DNA of 44,007 nucleotides from sequence record PX907401.1, one strand, 5' to 3'. This DNA comes from a phage. The notes under the pieces were generated by a model. It saw only the letters and a list, made by a program, of their open reading frames with translations. It had not been told where the DNA came from and made no database searches. This document shows positions 19,789 through 37,889 of this stretch, one piece after another (position 1 is the first letter of the stretch; every line of letters starts with the position of its first letter). Position numbers and translations under genes: made by a program.

Positions 19789-19815
19789 AAAAAAGGGCCG
19801 TATGGCCCTTCTCTT
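19787..19815. terminator. Bidirectional rho-independent terminator between converging transcription units
   Basis: AAAAAAAA-GGGCCGTATGGCCC-TTCTCTT; the hairpin is flanked by an A-run on one side and a T-rich run on the other. Confidence 0.7.
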
Positions 19816-19937: not shown

Positions 19938-21059
19938 TCACCGGTCATATTTATACCCCGCAACATCTATGAAAAAACCACCATCATCTTGCGGAGCGGA
20001 GGTATACTTGTACGCAACAAGGCCGCCACCAGCAATAGAAGGAGGTAGATCTATTAAAAACCTACAGTAATAAGGCTGAACGTTAGTTACGTATTCAAAA
20101 CCAACGGATGTGACGTTGGCGGATGCAAGTGTGGTTGTAGTGTTAGTCACTACCAATTTAACACTAGTAAATGCTGCCAAAGGTACAAACTTTTCATAAT
20201 TTACAGGTGCATCAGTAGTGGCGGTCCCTTTATTTAGTACGCGCCCTATTCCACCCCATGCAAATAAATGAATACACTCGCCGTCAATCAATCTGCAAAT
20301 CGCAACCTCGGATCCTCCAGTGAAATAAAACATCCCAATGAAGCGTCGACTTGTGTCGTCTTTTTTAGTGCTGGCCTTGTATCCGTATTTGACATTTTCG
20401 GTTGTTGATACTTCGATACCCAACGATCCGTTATCATTGTAGGCGTAAATATAATACTTCGTTGCCGCTGTTAAGCCACTGTGCGCGATAGTCTTCGGCG
20501 TCTCCAGGCGCAATATCTTATCTTCAGATGGAAGATAGCATTCCCCGGGATACACTTTTATATTTGTACTTGTCACGTCAACATTAAGGCCTGCAATGTG
20601 CTCGTCCATTCTGGTGTTAAGGGCAACCCAGCGCATTTCAACTGGGGCTACTTTCTTCAGCAAGGACGACAAATAACCCCACGACATACCCTGCATTACT
20701 TGACCGTTCGGCAGCGTTACCGAGATTTCTTCTTCGTTACCGAAGATTGCGCGCCAGTTGTTTTCATCTGCGATCATCAAGCGCAACGCTTTCTGCGCCT
20801 GGACGGTTACGCCCATCGTTGCCAGCGACATGGTGTCGCGCTTAACGCCATCCCACGCGAGGTCGGTTGCCGTGGGGCCGTCGAACGGCAGCACCAGCGT
20901 AAGCGCGGTGTCGCTTTCGACTGACGCGATAGCAACAGTGTAAGGGACTTGCCCTACTACCAGCGTTAAGAAGTCGCCAGCTTTAAACGCGGTGAACGTC
21001 GTGCCTACCCCGGCAACCGCCTTGCTGTTATTCGTTACGGATAGTGTACCCGCTGCCAT
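19938..21059 (-). CDS. Putative tail fiber / receptor-binding protein
   Basis: 373 aa from the ATG at 21059 (GAGGA 7 nt upstream; the track ORF starts at TTG 21086); last gene of the tail module; divergent from a Cor-like lipoprotein gene. Confidence 0.5.
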   Translation of the reverse strand: MAAGTLSVTNNSKAVAGVGTTFTAFKAGDFLTLVVGQVPYTVAIASVESDTALTLVLPFDGPTATDLAWDGVKRDTMSLATMGVTVQAQKALRLMIADENNWRAIFGNEEEISVTLPNGQVMQGMSWGYLSSLLKKVAPVEMRWVALNTRMDEHIAGLNVDVTSTNIKVYPGECYLPSEDKILRLETPKTIAHSGLTAATKYYIYAYNDNGSLGIEVSTTENVKYGYKASTKKDDTSRRFIGMFYFTGGSEVAICRLIDGECIHLFAWGGIGRVLNKGTATTDAPVNYEKFVPLAAFTSVKLVVTNTTTTLASANVTSVGFEYVTNVQPYYCRFLIDLPPSIAGGGLVAYKYTSAPQDDGGFFIDVAGYKYDR

Positions 21060-21139
21060 AGCTGAATCCTCATAAATTGGTTGCAATCCTGGTTGAGCGG
21101 TGTAATACTAAAACTCAACCAAATACAGGAGATGATACC

Positions 21140-21361
21140 ATGAAAACTTTACTTTTAGCCTGTGTAGTTGCGGTGCTGGTCGGATGCTCCGCGATGCCTG
21201 GCAAGATCTGCGAAGCGACATACCACACTGGCGGCATGGATTATGCGGTCCCTGTGTATGGTGTTGCGGACTTCTCCGGGCATAAAATGCTAAGGGCGGG
21301 TTATCCGTTTAGCTTCCGGTACGTGTCTGTAGACCATTTCAAAAACACCACCTGCGAATAA
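21140..21361 (+). CDS. Small lipoprotein (73 aa), candidate Cor/Llp-like superinfection-exclusion protein
   Basis: Signal peptide with lipobox MKTLLLACVVAVLVGC; AGGAG RBS 9 nt upstream; own promoter-like motif and terminator; embedded opposite to the tail genes. Confidence 0.6.
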   Translation: MKTLLLACVVAVLVGCSAMPGKICEATYHTGGMDYAVPVYGVADFSGHKMLRAGYPFSFRYVSVDHFKNTTCE

Positions 21362-21383
21362 TCCCCGAAAGGGGATTTTCTTC
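21361..21383 (+). terminator. Rho-independent terminator after the lipoprotein gene
   Basis: ATCCCC-GAAA-GGGGAT followed by TTTCTT. Confidence 0.65.
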
Positions 21384-22056
21384 AGTCGTAGTTGGCAGTG
21401 TTAATCGCCATGATTGCGTTGCCGTTATTCGTATACCCCACCACACCCCCCGTGGCGTTCCCAGCCGACGCTGCGGATATACGCGTTCGTGACCCATCAA
21501 ATCTGGCCCCCGTGTACGCCGTTATCGATATTACCTGCGGCTGGCCCTGCACAAAAAACCGGATCAGCGTAGACCCCAATATGCCCGGAGCGACGGCGTA
21601 GCTGCCGTTTAGCGTCTGGTCAATGTTAATCCCCCCGTTAGCGCCTGGCGATCCGACGGTAACTAAATCGCTTAGTACCCTGCTCTCGTTCGTCAGCACT
21701 AGCCTCCCCGTCTTATCCCAAATAGCGAAGCCCCACCGCGGAAGGGTCTGCGGGAATATGGCAAAGATGTATGCCGTCAACGTGAATCCTTGCCCAAATG
21801 GATTGCTGGCGCTCACCTTCACCACATTACCAACGCGAGAAGACCCTACGACGGTCGGCCGGGCGGTGTGCGTAGTTTTCACAAACGCTATTGCAGGGTA
21901 GTCACCTCCCAAATCAATATCGGCAGCCGCCATTTGCATCGTGCCGTTAGTCCAGGACCCGACATCCACCCGCCGGAATAGACAAAACGGCGTCGATTCT
22001 GGCGTGATAAACGGGTTGCCGTTTGGTAAGTCAATCAACGCGCCGTAATTAGCCAT
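21382..22056 (-). CDS. Hypothetical tail-associated protein (224 aa)
   Basis: ORF between the J-like gene and the fiber gene; Gly/Asn/Thr-rich. Confidence 0.5.
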   Translation of the reverse strand: MANYGALIDLPNGNPFITPESTPFCLFRRVDVGSWTNGTMQMAAADIDLGGDYPAIAFVKTTHTARPTVVGSSRVGNVVKVSASNPFGQGFTLTAYIFAIFPQTLPRWGFAIWDKTGRLVLTNESRVLSDLVTVGSPGANGGINIDQTLNGSYAVAPGILGSTLIRFFVQGQPQVISITAYTGARFDGSRTRISAASAGNATGGVVGYTNNGNAIMAINTANYD

Positions 22057-22358
22057 TATGCTCGCTCCACAAAAACAATAACGTCACATTCAGATGCGGA
22101 GTAAACCCCGCCACCTACCGCACTTGCCGCGGAAACCGTGATAGTGTTCCCGCTGGCGGTTATTCTGCGTCCTGGCCCGACCGCGCCTTCATCCAGTGCG
22201 ACCACGTATCCGACCTTCATCCCCGCCGGTACAGGGAATGACCATGCGCCTGATTTTTGTCCTTCCGCAAGATGAATCCTTCCGATCACGCTTACCGGTT
22301 TAATGCCGTAGTTGTTTGGGCGTCCTTGCGCGTCCCACGTTGCTATACCGAATGCCAT
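22056..22358 (-). CDS. Hypothetical protein (100 aa)
   Basis: ORF directly downstream of the J-like gene. Confidence 0.45.
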   Translation of the reverse strand: MAFGIATWDAQGRPNNYGIKPVSVIGRIHLAEGQKSGAWSFPVPAGMKVGYVVALDEGAVGPGRRITASGNTITVSAASAVGGGVYSASECDVIVFVERA

Positions 22359-22394: not shown

Positions 22395-25300
22395 CTACCA
22401 GCGACCAGTAAGCTCGCCAATTTGCACGCGTAAAACACCGTTCTCGTCTTTAACGCTGTAGTTTGTGTTGGTCTGCTTTGTACCACCACCGCTTCCAGTC
22501 CCCAGGTTGATAAACGTTCCATCTTTCCCCAAGCGCCAGCCTCGCGTGCTGCCGTCGTAGTTATTCGACTGCAGCGTGTCTGTGATCTGCGCAAAGTTAA
22601 TGGACGCATTCTTGATGCGTGCGGTGTCAATGTACACCTGCCCGCCGTCAACAATAAACGCGGACGAAAGCGACCCATTCGACGGGTGCATGATGTAGAA
22701 CTGGTCTGCCTTGAACGCGATGCGTGATTTAACCGCGCCCCCTTCCACCACAACTGAAAGCTGCATACCGGCGTCATAGTAAGTCCCTTTATACGTCACG
22801 CCAGCCTTAAGGCTGTAAGTCGCGCTACCACCAGCGTGGTTAAACGAAGACGTCATCTTCTGCTCGATAGCTGCGGACTGCTGACCGAACTGCGCCGCGA
22901 CCTGGGTCTTATACTCCGCCAGTGCGCCCGCTACGTCTGCCGTTGCCGTTTGTACCTGCTGGATGGCGGCTTCCTGTTCCCCGAACTTAGCGGCAACAGT
23001 TTGCTGATACTGGGCGAATGCTTGCTCGTGAGTGCTTTGCGCTGTCTGCAACGTGTGGATTGCCGCTTCCGCATCGTCAAGGCGAGTGCCGATCAACGTT
23101 TCCAGTTGCGAGACTGCCTTGTGGGCGTCTGCCGCCACGTTATATGCGACCTTGATTTCTGCGTAAATCCCTTTGTACTCAGCACGGGCGTTAAACAACT
23201 GCTGTGCGTCAGTGAGCATCGCCTCGTAAATACCCTGCGGGATCGTGTCGATTGCGTCCTGGAAGTGTTTACCATCCTCGGAAGTCAAGAACTCGTCATC
23301 AAGCCCCTTCATGTATTCGTCGACTTTGTCACTCACCTGGCCTTCAAACGGATCTGACCAGTCCGACAGGTTTCCGATTTTATCCGCTACACGGGCGCGC
23401 AACTGCTGGTAGATGCCGAACTCCAGCGACGTTTGCGCATACTCCGCCCCCGGATATGGGACGTTGGTTAGGAACTTCCATTCCGTTTCACCAGTCTTAC
23501 GCACTTCAAGCTCGGTGTACGAAATATCCGTCGCGGCGTTGTTGTGGTTCCACTTCCACAAAATTTGGTGTAAGCCAGAAATTGCGTTGGTGATGATTGG
23601 CGCGTTAAGCCCGCCGAGACGACCATCCACCGGCGTGATAGCTGACGACACCCACGGGGACGAAATCTCGCCCATACCGATCGCGCGGACGCGTGCCTGG
23701 TAGTTACCGGAGAACACGTTAGGGATGTGCGCGCCGTTCGATGCAGTGCGTGGGATGTTCACCCAGTCGTTACCCCACTGGATCGCCATATTCTGCAGGC
23801 TAGTACGCCTCCACTGGATTTCATACACCACGGCATCTTTCACCGGCGGGAAAACAATATCCACGTTGGTGATTAGCTGGCCTTGCGATGAAATCTGCGA
23901 CGGAGTTATAGTCACGGATTCCGGCCCCTTCATTACACCGTCCGGCACTTGCGTAAAGATGCCCGGGTCTAGGCGCGCGCCATTATCAACGGCATCATAT
24001 TTGCTATCGTTGTATTCAATCCCGCGCACCGAGAAAGTGCTGGTAGAGTCATCATATTCTAGGTCGGTTATGCGGAACTTCTGCAACTGGATATCATCGC
24101 CATCAACGCAAAACGGTTGATCGGGAATCGGGTCGGCGTTCAGTGCAGTTTTCAGCGTAACCTTGTTGCCGTTGACGCTGGCAATCTCACGAGTCTCCAC
24201 ATTCCCGCTATCGGTGCGCACCAGGAATTTGTCACCAGGGCGGAACGTGATTTCGCTGTCTGTGTTCAGCACAGTCCGCGTGCCTGGATCTGACAACAGG
24301 CGACCGCCGCGGATCTCGAATCCGCCAGAAATATTAGTATCTGCGATCGCGACTACGCTACCGGGAATAAAGAATAACCCCTCCATGCCAACCTTAAAAC
24401 TAACTTGCTGGTCAAGCTGGTTTGAGATTAGCGCCCAGTGCCCCCGGCGTTGTGCTTCTGATTCACGCGTACATCCGATCGCCGTAATATCAAGGCGGTT
24501 GATTTTATGGCGGCGCACCAGTTCGACACGCTGGCCCGTTGCGATGGCGTCTTCGTAATGGTTCTTCGGGTTGCCGTATGCTACCGCGAACGTGGAATAG
24601 CGAGTTTTCTGGCTACCCGATGCGTAGTCGAATCGGCCATCAATAACCGAGGCGTTGGTGATAGTGTGCGATACCGCTGCGACCGGCTGGTCGCTTACGA
24701 TATTCAACATCTGGTTGCCCCACCATGTCATACCCGCAAAGATAGCTGCTAAATCCTTAAGCACGGTCCAGGCGTCTGTCTGCGACTGGATGTACATATC
24801 ATTCTTAAAGCGGATTTCCTGTCCGCCGTTGCCGTCGCTGACCAGTTGATCGCAGCGCTTCGCAATCTGGTAGAGCGCATACCGGTTTAACATTTGCGGT
24901 TTGATACGCCGACCGAGGCCGAAGCGCTCAGTAATACAAATATCGTACCAGTGCCACGCGGGGTTATCCGTCCATGCGCGTTTAAACGTGCCGTCCCAGT
25001 CACCGGAATAGGTATGATTAATCGGGTCGTAGTTGTTAGGTATTAGAACTTTGCGGCCTTTGCACTTGATGGACACGCGCGGGATGTTCTGGAACGCTTT
25101 AGCGTCGAACTCCACGAACAACAGCGCAGTTAGCGGGTAGCGAAGACGGGCGTCGATAATCTCAGTAATAGATTGCACCCGGATATCGTTAACCACTTTT
25201 GCCGATGTGGAGTCTGCCGTTATGCGGTGCACCTCCACGCGCCAGCCTGTGTTAACGTTCGGCGGTAGCTCGATGCGGTGATCGCGCTCGTATAGAGACA

Positions 25301-25814
25301 TTGTTTTACCAACGGCGGCGAAGGTAAACTCACGCGGGTCGGCATTATCCGTATACACAACGATCTTATAGTCGATGCGCCCACCCACCAGGTCGCCATT
25401 ATCTTCGCTAGTGTACAGGGCAGGAATGCCGATGCGAACACGCACGGCGTCAAGACTGGTGTCGGTGATCTGGCGCACCCACGGCGTACCGTTTTCCAGT
25501 TTTACACCGACGGATTGCTCACTTTCCACCGCTGAAAATCCGTGGATCACATCCTGGTGCTGTGTGCCGGGGCGGAACTCCACGCGCGCTCCGGGGAAGT
25601 TTTCGGACAGGTCTGCGTTCTGGATCGGTGTTCCGTCCAGATATACGCGCTGCCGTAATTCGCTGGCGCTCGTAATGCCTTCGAATTCCCCTTCCCCCAG
25701 CGCAAGCAAGATGCGGATTTTAGCCAGCGAATGCAGGCTATCTGGCGTCTCCTGTGGGGTGTGCTGTTTGCCTCCGCCGCCTTTATGGCCTGTGACGTCG
25801 TATACAATCGTCAT
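22395..25814 (-). CDS. Central tail fiber / host specificity protein (lambda J-like)
   Basis: 1139 aa; position after the I-like gene; N-terminal region typical of J-family proteins. Confidence 0.8.
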   Translation of the reverse strand: MTIVYDVTGHKGGGGKQHTPQETPDSLHSLAKIRILLALGEGEFEGITSASELRQRVYLDGTPIQNADLSENFPGARVEFRPGTQHQDVIHGFSAVESEQSVGVKLENGTPWVRQITDTSLDAVRVRIGIPALYTSEDNGDLVGGRIDYKIVVYTDNADPREFTFAAVGKTMSLYERDHRIELPPNVNTGWRVEVHRITADSTSAKVVNDIRVQSITEIIDARLRYPLTALLFVEFDAKAFQNIPRVSIKCKGRKVLIPNNYDPINHTYSGDWDGTFKRAWTDNPAWHWYDICITERFGLGRRIKPQMLNRYALYQIAKRCDQLVSDGNGGQEIRFKNDMYIQSQTDAWTVLKDLAAIFAGMTWWGNQMLNIVSDQPVAAVSHTITNASVIDGRFDYASGSQKTRYSTFAVAYGNPKNHYEDAIATGQRVELVRRHKINRLDITAIGCTRESEAQRRGHWALISNQLDQQVSFKVGMEGLFFIPGSVVAIADTNISGGFEIRGGRLLSDPGTRTVLNTDSEITFRPGDKFLVRTDSGNVETREIASVNGNKVTLKTALNADPIPDQPFCVDGDDIQLQKFRITDLEYDDSTSTFSVRGIEYNDSKYDAVDNGARLDPGIFTQVPDGVMKGPESVTITPSQISSQGQLITNVDIVFPPVKDAVVYEIQWRRTSLQNMAIQWGNDWVNIPRTASNGAHIPNVFSGNYQARVRAIGMGEISSPWVSSAITPVDGRLGGLNAPIITNAISGLHQILWKWNHNNAATDISYTELEVRKTGETEWKFLTNVPYPGAEYAQTSLEFGIYQQLRARVADKIGNLSDWSDPFEGQVSDKVDEYMKGLDDEFLTSEDGKHFQDAIDTIPQGIYEAMLTDAQQLFNARAEYKGIYAEIKVAYNVAADAHKAVSQLETLIGTRLDDAEAAIHTLQTAQSTHEQAFAQYQQTVAAKFGEQEAAIQQVQTATADVAGALAEYKTQVAAQFGQQSAAIEQKMTSSFNHAGGSATYSLKAGVTYKGTYYDAGMQLSVVVEGGAVKSRIAFKADQFYIMHPSNGSLSSAFIVDGGQVYIDTARIKNASINFAQITDTLQSNNYDGSTRGWRLGKDGTFINLGTGSGGGTKQTNTNYSVKDENGVLRVQIGELTGRW

Positions 25815-37641: not shown

Positions 37642-37672
37642 ACAAAAAAGGGGGGCCATCACGGCCCTCGAA
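37642..37672. terminator. Bidirectional terminator between the clamp-like gene and the spanin genes
   Basis: Hairpin GGGCC-ATCAC-GGCCC; minus strand followed by CCCTTTTTTGTT. Confidence 0.5.
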
Positions 37673-37889
37673 TTATTTTCTGCAACTCCAGCACTTGCGC
37701 CCTTAGCTTAGCCCCGCATTCCATATTTTTAACATCAACCAGCAAGTCTTCGTCTGGATCTGCCGAGGCATTCTCAAAGGTGCAAGGAGGTCTATAGACC
37801 GACTCGGTTAGCGGCATCAATGGCGCTTTGCTTGATCCGCACGCGCTCAGCATCAAAACTGCAATCAGGACGGTTAGGACGCGTAACAT
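37659..37889 (-). CDS. Outer-membrane spanin (Rz1-like lipoprotein)
   Basis: 76 aa; lipobox MLRVLTVLIAVLMLSAC; Pro-rich mature part with Cys residues; GAGG RBS; overlaps the 3' end of the Rz-like gene in another frame. Confidence 0.6.
   Translation of the reverse strand: MLRVLTVLIAVLMLSACGSSKAPLMPLTESVYRPPCTFENASADPDEDLLVDVKNMECGAKLRAQVLELQKIIRGP

Follow-up and report, generated by a model that had tools for sequence, protein, structure and literature searches.

What does a small plus-strand gene do between two tail genes that are read from the opposite strand? In the 44,007-nt phage sequence PX907401.1, the whole of which is called the window below, an ORF of this kind (21140-21361, +) separates the gene of a lateral tail fibre from the genes of the tail tip, and an earlier note had proposed that it encodes a receptor-blocking lipoprotein similar to Cor of T1 and phi80 or Llp of T5. 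The best explanation, to which a probability of about 0.85 is given, is that the product is the Cor lipoprotein of a virulent Dhillonvirus-type coliphage, which would inactivate FhuA from the periplasm in an Llp-like manner and so exclude further phages.

The cor ORF and its lipoprotein signal

The gene starts with ATG at 21140 and ends with TAA at 21359-21361; the list of ORFs gives exactly the 73-aa plus-strand frame reported in the earlier note. Its product, a prolipoprotein, begins with MKTLLLACVVAVLVGC and reads MKTLLLACVVAVLVGCSAMPGKICEATYHTGGMDYAVPVYGVADFSGHKMLRAGYPFSFRYVSVDHFKNTTCE in full. The ribosome binding site, which had been described as strong, is the Shine-Dalgarno sequence AGGAG (21127-21131, +), 8 nt 5' of the start codon; in relatives this site reads AGGAG, GGGGA or AAGAG. 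A longer, TTG-initiated ORF (21077-21361, 94 aa) was considered and rejected, because it would bury the signal peptide, whose place is at the N-terminus, and because AGGAG precedes the ATG. The cor CDS of SECphi4 (L006, 1450-1722) is annotated from an upstream start as a product of 90 aa, which is probably an over-extended start.

The lipoprotein signal that had been noticed by eye also holds by formal rule. The PROSITE-type lipoprotein pattern, {DERK}6-[LIVMFWSTAG]2-[LIVMFYSTAGCQ]-[AGS]-C, with the lipobox cysteine allowed at positions 15-35 and a positive residue needed within the first seven, is fitted by the residues LACVVAVLVGC, where Cys16 is the lipobox cysteine and Lys2 provides the charge of the n-region. 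Residues 3-15 are strongly hydrophobic, and the mean Kyte-Doolittle value of the h-region is 2.85. The signal peptide (aa 1-15; 21140-21184, +) ends in three residues that form the lipobox L-V-G-C together with Cys16, and is followed by a mature protein of 58 aa (21185-21358, +) with a Cys1 predicted to be acylated, a probable disulfide between Cys9 and Cys57, and the motif RAGYPF. The +2 residue of the mature protein is Ser and not the retention signal Asp, so no inner-membrane retention signal is present. Under the Lol sorting rule, Ser at +2 predicts that the lipoprotein is sorted to the outer membrane and sits in its inner leaflet.

The window has 550 ORFs that start with Met and are 40 aa or longer, and the same rule selects 5 of them. 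Three of the other four have no family match; the last, the sole genuine lipoprotein-signal ORF besides cor, encodes an Rz-like spanin lipoprotein of 76 aa (MLRVLTVLIAVLMLSAC...; 37659-37889, -; PHROG 5672, E=1.2e-25). A spanin identity was also considered for the cor ORF itself and rejected: it matches PHROG 1119 only, and the spanin is a separate ORF.

In an alignment of cor from seven Dhillonviruses, variable columns numbered 19, 16 and 39 (each of 72) at the first, second and third codon positions, respectively. This third-position excess is the signature of protein coding under purifying selection in the annotated frame.

Membership of the Cor family

Over residues 1-73 the protein matches PHROG 1119, 'Cor superinfection exclusion protein' (E=1.9e-23), and the NCBIfam equivalog NF047972, lamb_exclu_cor ('phage exclusion lipoprotein Cor'), the latter with 56.3 bits, where the curated cutoff is 31, and with residues 1-73 aligned to profile positions 1-77/78. 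No Pfam model matches Cor or either of its cassette partners, the neighbouring 224-aa and 100-aa proteins, and the family assignment therefore rests on PHROGs and NCBIfam.

A first, word-indexed homologue search found only 4 proteins and was repeated with alignment. By tblastn, cor was matched in 233 phage records, and in more than 140 of them it is intact over at least 80% of its length. The best match is SM_A8 (94.5% identical, annotated 'super-infection exclusion protein cor'), while T1-like phages reach 44-50% and the Cor proteins of phi80, HK022 and N15 38-40% over the mature part. A profile search of a large protein collection returned 205 clusters, many of which carry the name 'phage exclusion lipoprotein Cor' or 'cor protein'. 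Leu, Gly and Cys of the lipobox, together with C24, C72 and R52-F57 (RAGYPF), are invariant between the Cor proteins of the window, the Dhillonviruses, T1, phi80 and N15, and 98 family sequences all share C1, C9, A38, G39, P41 and C57 (mature numbering).

Judged by those features of the Cor family that can be read from sequence, all of which are present, the protein is filed as Cor and not as Llp. The Cor/Llp-like identity put forward in the earlier note is thus upheld by full-length matches to family profiles, by the motifs, by the position in the cassette and by a predicted Llp fold. The gene as such is already known: it bears the annotation cor in numerous near-identical GenBank records, and the link between the cassette and the receptor has been published.

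Gene neighbourhood and phage identity

In megablast, the window falls among Escherichia phages of the genus Dhillonvirus (welsh, AV129, EC115); about 90% of its first 22 kb aligns with them at approximately 91-92% identity. For the local region, identity is 92.9% with SM_A8 and 92.4% with JLBYU37. Neither Rfam families nor tRNAs were found when the whole window was scanned.

Convergent with cor is a gene encoding a gp23-like protein of 224 aa (21382-22056, -), which belongs to phrog_425 (PHROG 425, E=5.8e-69). It is accompanied by the genes of a gp22-like protein of 100 aa (22056-22358, -), which belongs to phrog_557 (PHROG 557, E=1.1e-32) and is 71-72% identical to gp22 of phi80 and N15, and of a J-like central tail fibre or tail tip protein of 1139 aa (22395-25814, -) carrying the Pfam domains FNIII-A_GpJ, Phage-tail_3 and Phage_Tail_Tip. 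The resulting order, J, 100 aa, 224 aa and cor, is the same in T1, phi80 and N15.

On its other side, cor diverges across an 80-bp intergenic region from a gene encoding a 373-aa lateral tail fibre (19938-21059, -). The N-terminal 223 aa of this protein match PHROG 1980, 'tail fiber', and its homologue in the BASEL phages PaulFeyerabend and KarlBarth is named 'lateral tail fiber protein'. The earlier note had regarded this neighbour as the receptor-binding fibre. The divergent arrangement is indeed present, but the fibre is a lateral (side) one, for which glycan recognition on the cell surface has been proposed (BASEL), and its gene is context only, outside the exclusion system. The proposed FhuA-binding module, consisting of J and the 100-aa and 224-aa proteins, lies on the convergent side.

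The distal part of the lateral fibre shows features of its own. Against 50,697 phage records, tblastn matched only its N-terminal 143-199 aa, and megablast coverage at this locus ends at about 20631. The C-terminal 175-230 aa or so (19938-20630, -) have PHROG 34307, a family of unknown function, as their sole match (E 1.8e-20), and the length of the fibre is 373 aa here against 571 aa in SM_A8 and 805 aa in JLBYU37. This suggests that the distal glycan-recognition domain was swapped, perhaps giving a distinct host O-antigen range.

The KanT1 paper (PMC13164509) suggests that proteins of the 224-aa and 100-aa types are membrane proteins aiding exclusion. Neither of the two contains a signal peptide or a hydrophobic segment (the maximal 19-residue Kyte-Doolittle value is about 1.2), and this fits the BASEL view of a tail-tip receptor-binding function better than that of membrane-located exclusion helpers. 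Records with Cor and records with the 224-aa protein are equal in number for phages of Escherichia (178/178), Enterobacteria (22/22) and Salmonella (4/4), which is consistent with inheritance as a unit.

Two further groups of records were observed. Among Klebsiella phages, homologues of the 224-aa protein (about 32% identity) occur in 111 records, e.g. H108-H117, and Cor in 2 (tblastn, E<=1e-5); either their Cor has diverged beyond the reach of a tblastn query of 73 aa, or the binding module exists there without a Cor-type partner. Eight phage records labelled Campylobacter jejuni (e.g. MG065637.1 and MG065679.1) contain both Cor and the 224-aa protein at identities typical of T1-like coliphages; the host labels look doubtful, and contaminating coliphages are possibly behind them.

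Transcription signals

A terminator-like site (19793-19810) closes the early-strand gene block, so that cor is probably dependent on a promoter of its own. A promoter-like motif is located at 21081-21109 (+) and consists of TTGCAA (21081-21086), a 17-nt spacer, TG (21101-21102), t and AATACT (21104-21109); it has 8 of the 12 consensus positions in addition to the extended -10 TG. The motif is kept with small changes in 7 Dhillonviruses, and the phi80 cor promoter, as annotated, is also a 9-nt extended -10 element, TGGTATTGT. Sites of this quality number 10 in the window against 7.2 +/- 2.7 expected from first-order Markov simulations, and the motif alone, at this chance-level frequency, is not significant. 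A scan of the window with promoter and terminator consensus sequences called neither a promoter nor a terminator for cor. Of the promoter claimed for this gene, the motif and its conservation thus stand, while its prominence over chance does not; a separate cor promoter is plausible.

A terminator-like hairpin at 21360-21383 (+; stem-loop 21360-21377) reads AAUCCCC-GAAA-GGGGAUU followed by UUCUUC, and fills the 20-bp gap that separates the stop codons of cor and the convergent 224-aa gene. Its energy is -16.5 kcal/mol (z = -4.2), a compensatory T:A to G:C change is found in relatives, and among Dhillonviruses the loop is flipped, being either GAAA or TTTC. The scan passed it over because the U-tract, UUCUUC, is imperfect. 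The terminator claimed earlier can be retained as a stable hairpin with a compensatory change, not as a canonical terminator with a perfect U-tract.

On the minus strand, that is, on the side of the tail operon, the hairpin is followed by AUUAUUCG, and a U-rich tail is present on the cor side only. A hairpin without a minus-strand U-tract would allow read-through into the lateral fibre gene. Two late tail genes flank cor in the opposite orientation, and late transcription towards the lateral fibre must therefore cross cor in antisense. It might even be imagined that the convergent layout is a built-in temporal switch, in which early cor transcription limits read-through to the lateral fibre and late transcription silences cor, but this idea is speculative and is given little credence.

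Putative receptor and the mosaic patch of cor

For three Dhillonviruses, JLBYU37, JLBYU60 and Teewinot, experiments have demonstrated dependence on FhuA and on its loop L8 (PMC10373560), and the extended cor cassette has been found in ten BASEL Drexlerviridae/Dhillonvirus phages, all of which use FhuA (PMC13164509, 2026). The 100-aa, 224-aa and J proteins of the window are 99%, 94.6% and 97% identical to those of JLBYU37, respectively; with its Teewinot counterpart, the 224-aa protein shares 96% identity. With the cassette 95-99% identical to those of FhuA-dependent phages, FhuA is predicted to be both the terminal receptor of the phage and the target of Cor.

Cor itself, at 78% identity to the JLBYU37 protein, is far more diverged than the remaining cassette. 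The divergence is concentrated in a patch (21140-21220) where DNA identity to JLBYU37 falls to 62-70%, the flanks being 90-100% identical. This patch spans the signal peptide and approximately the first 20 mature residues, and its version is shared with SM_A8. Residues 1-36 account for 16 of the 17 amino acid differences, and the C-terminal two-thirds of the protein differs at 1 of 37 positions. Apart from this patch and the antisense position of cor in the late tail operon, nothing about the gene is even slightly out of the ordinary. As a lesser variant of the reading given above, the SM_A8-type N-terminal patch might shift which FhuA alleles or competing phages are excluded by Cor.

Predicted structure and possible mode of action

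The mature protein of 58 residues was modelled confidently with AlphaFold2 from an alignment of 98 sequences (mean pLDDT 87.9) and forms four beta strands in the model. When it was compared with all PDB chains, FhuA-bound Llp of T5 was the single strong match in both fold and disulfide topology, although in the Foldseek ranking as such Llp stood 12th (E 0.09, TM 0.56-0.59), after generic Tudor-like small barrels. The best match in BFVD was the 'super-infection exclusion protein' of the Dhillonvirus CEC_Kaz_2018 (TM 0.96), and the next were proteins of the T5-like phages DT571/2, PSTCR5, slur09 and Stubb, of which three bear the name 'Lipoprotein'.

At the sequence level, a search of the PDB with the Cor profile placed Llp first (E 0.0027), although this alignment is mostly signal peptide, with about 25 residues beyond it, and Cys16, Cys24 and Cys72 of Cor align with the lipid-bearing Cys, Cys11 and Cys58 of Llp. 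The similarity of the mature domains, measured with the 98-sequence Cor profile, is not significant (hhalign E 0.5, probability 0.1), and a PDB search with the single Cor sequence gave chance matches only (hepatitis E virus ORF2, E about 1). It is thus the predicted fold from which we infer an Llp-type mechanism for Cor.

Llp binds a non-native conformation of the FhuA plug and makes EL7 and EL8 fold inward over the phage-binding site, and its authors suggested a similar action for Cor proteins (PMC9586334); the disulfide of Llp is reported to be necessary for its interaction with FhuA (bioRxiv 10.64898/2026.03.26.714494). By analogy, the following course of events may be envisaged. After injection, cor would be transcribed as its own unit: the host RNA polymerase would start at the weak extended -10 promoter, and the transcript would end at the hairpin just past the stop codon. 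The precursor would be exported, receive a diacylglycerol on Cys16, and be processed by signal peptidase II and N-acylated. [quoted passage not shown] Further FhuA-dependent phages would be excluded, and progeny would be spared wasteful adsorption to debris. The timing of expression, the localisation, the FhuA binding and the allosteric mechanism are all inferred; adsorption blocking, by homology, is the most likely activity of the protein. No experimental test of any Dhillonvirus Cor was found in the searchable literature.

Other explanations have to be weighed against this one. An unlikely though arguable possibility is that Cor inactivates FhuA by a route different from that of Llp, either together with other outer-membrane proteins or by steric or surface occlusion. 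For a non-Llp route, Arguijo-Hernandez et al. are cited in the KanT1 paper (PMC13164509), the molecular mechanism of Cor, even of the prophage proteins, is called "not elucidated" in the Llp preprint (bioRxiv 10.64898/2026.03.26.714494), and mature Cor has no significant similarity to Llp, from which RAGYPF is missing. Against it, the predicted fold and disulfide topology are best matched, among all PDB chains, by Llp in its complex with FhuA, and a published AlphaFold3 model of Cor with FhuA docks the lipoprotein at the periplasmic face with an ipTM of 0.84 (PMC13164509). Ser at +2, which predicts an inner-leaflet position in the outer membrane, also speaks against it. It is much less probable that the protein, while of the Cor/Llp type, is aimed at a receptor other than FhuA, such as BtuB, LptD or YncD. 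The genus Dhillonvirus uses FhuA, LptD and LamB, Cor-like proteins occur in BtuB-dependent Markadamsvirinae and Tempevirinae (PMC13164509), the fold alone leaves the target unfixed, and the N-terminal third of Cor is just the diverged mosaic patch in comparison with the FhuA-dependent JLBYU37. However, the full three-gene cassette with phrog_557 and phrog_425 is the form tied to FhuA (PMC13164509), it is 95-99% identical here to those of phages proven to depend on FhuA, the remainder of Cor is nearly unchanged from JLBYU37 (the single difference in 37 positions), and relatives that target LptD carry an unrelated protein of the Rtp45 type (E 3.7 against the Cor profile).

Finally, it is hardly credible that the ORF arose by chance, is what remains of a decayed gene, or encodes a spanin lipoprotein for lysis. 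The ORF is small, lacks a Pfam match and is preceded by a promoter motif of chance-level quality, and these points could speak for such a reading; yet it matches its families over the full length with strong E-values, varies mainly at third codon positions and persists intact, at 80% of the length or more, in more than 140 phage records, while the spanin lipoprotein of this phage is encoded elsewhere (37659-37889, -). The conservation data effectively refute the chance or decayed ORF. An Llp-like inactivation of FhuA by Cor is the preferred explanation.

If Cor acts in this way, infected or cor-carrying cells should resist FhuA-dependent phages (T1, T5, phi80) and probably albomycin and colicin M. 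The closest Dhillonviruses would also be blocked, because they need loop L8 of FhuA. Such resistance is relevant to the design of phage cocktails. The annotation of Cor supports the prediction of FhuA as the receptor and adds little otherwise.

Comparison with known exclusion systems

The nearest relatives are the Dhillonviruses SM_A8, JLBYU37, Gluttony and others, in which the gene is annotated as cor or super-infection exclusion protein; the signal peptide and N-terminal patch that the window shares with SM_A8 are diverged from those of other T1-like and Dhillonvirus Cor proteins. Cor of T1 (ST30, YP_003915.1) is 46.6% identical and has the same size, lipobox, cysteine pair and RAGYPF motif. 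In T1, as here, the cassette comprises J, proteins of about 100 and about 225 aa, and cor, which is read from the other strand and converges on the gp23-like gene. In both phages a GC-rich hairpin lies between the two stop codons; that of T1 (L004, 15603-15629; AAGCCCC-loop-GGGGCUU), between the convergent gp23-like and cor genes, is nearly the same. Its U-tract, however, faces the tail operon, with no tail gene beyond, whereas the U-tract of the window faces cor, and only here does a lateral fibre gene lie beyond cor.

The Cor proteins of phi80, N15, HK022 and mEp167, known for lysogenic conversion and FhuA inactivation, belong to the same family with 36-41% identity and the same motifs, and differ in a 3-residue insertion ahead of the first disulfide cysteine, which is absent here. 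The gp22 and gp23 homologues of phi80 and N15 are 56-72% identical to the proteins of the window, and cor follows them in both phages. The phi80 record labels cor a moron and gives it an extended -10 promoter and a terminator of its own. The temperate phages have the gene in the same direction as the tail genes and express it from the prophage, whereas in the window it is inverted and the genus is described as virulent.

Llp of T5 (PDB 8A60 with FhuA, 7QJF free) is, like the predicted fold of Cor, a compact beta-rich domain with an N-to-C disulfide, but unlike Cor it has no RAGYPF motif. The llp gene adjoins the receptor-binding gene oad/pb5 and is likewise divergent from this host-recognition gene, with back-to-back promoters annotated; pb5 has no counterpart here, where the neighbours are the lateral fibre (phrog_1980) and the phrog_425 protein. 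Rtp45 of phage Rtp (PDB 9RPS) is also a small lipoprotein of small siphophages, encoded beside the receptor-binding locus, downstream of a J homologue, and exerts superinfection exclusion by blocking the phage's own receptor, in this case LptDE. It differs from Cor in targeting LptD by a steric rather than a plug-mediated mechanism, and its E-value of 3.7 against the Cor profile sets it apart from the family.
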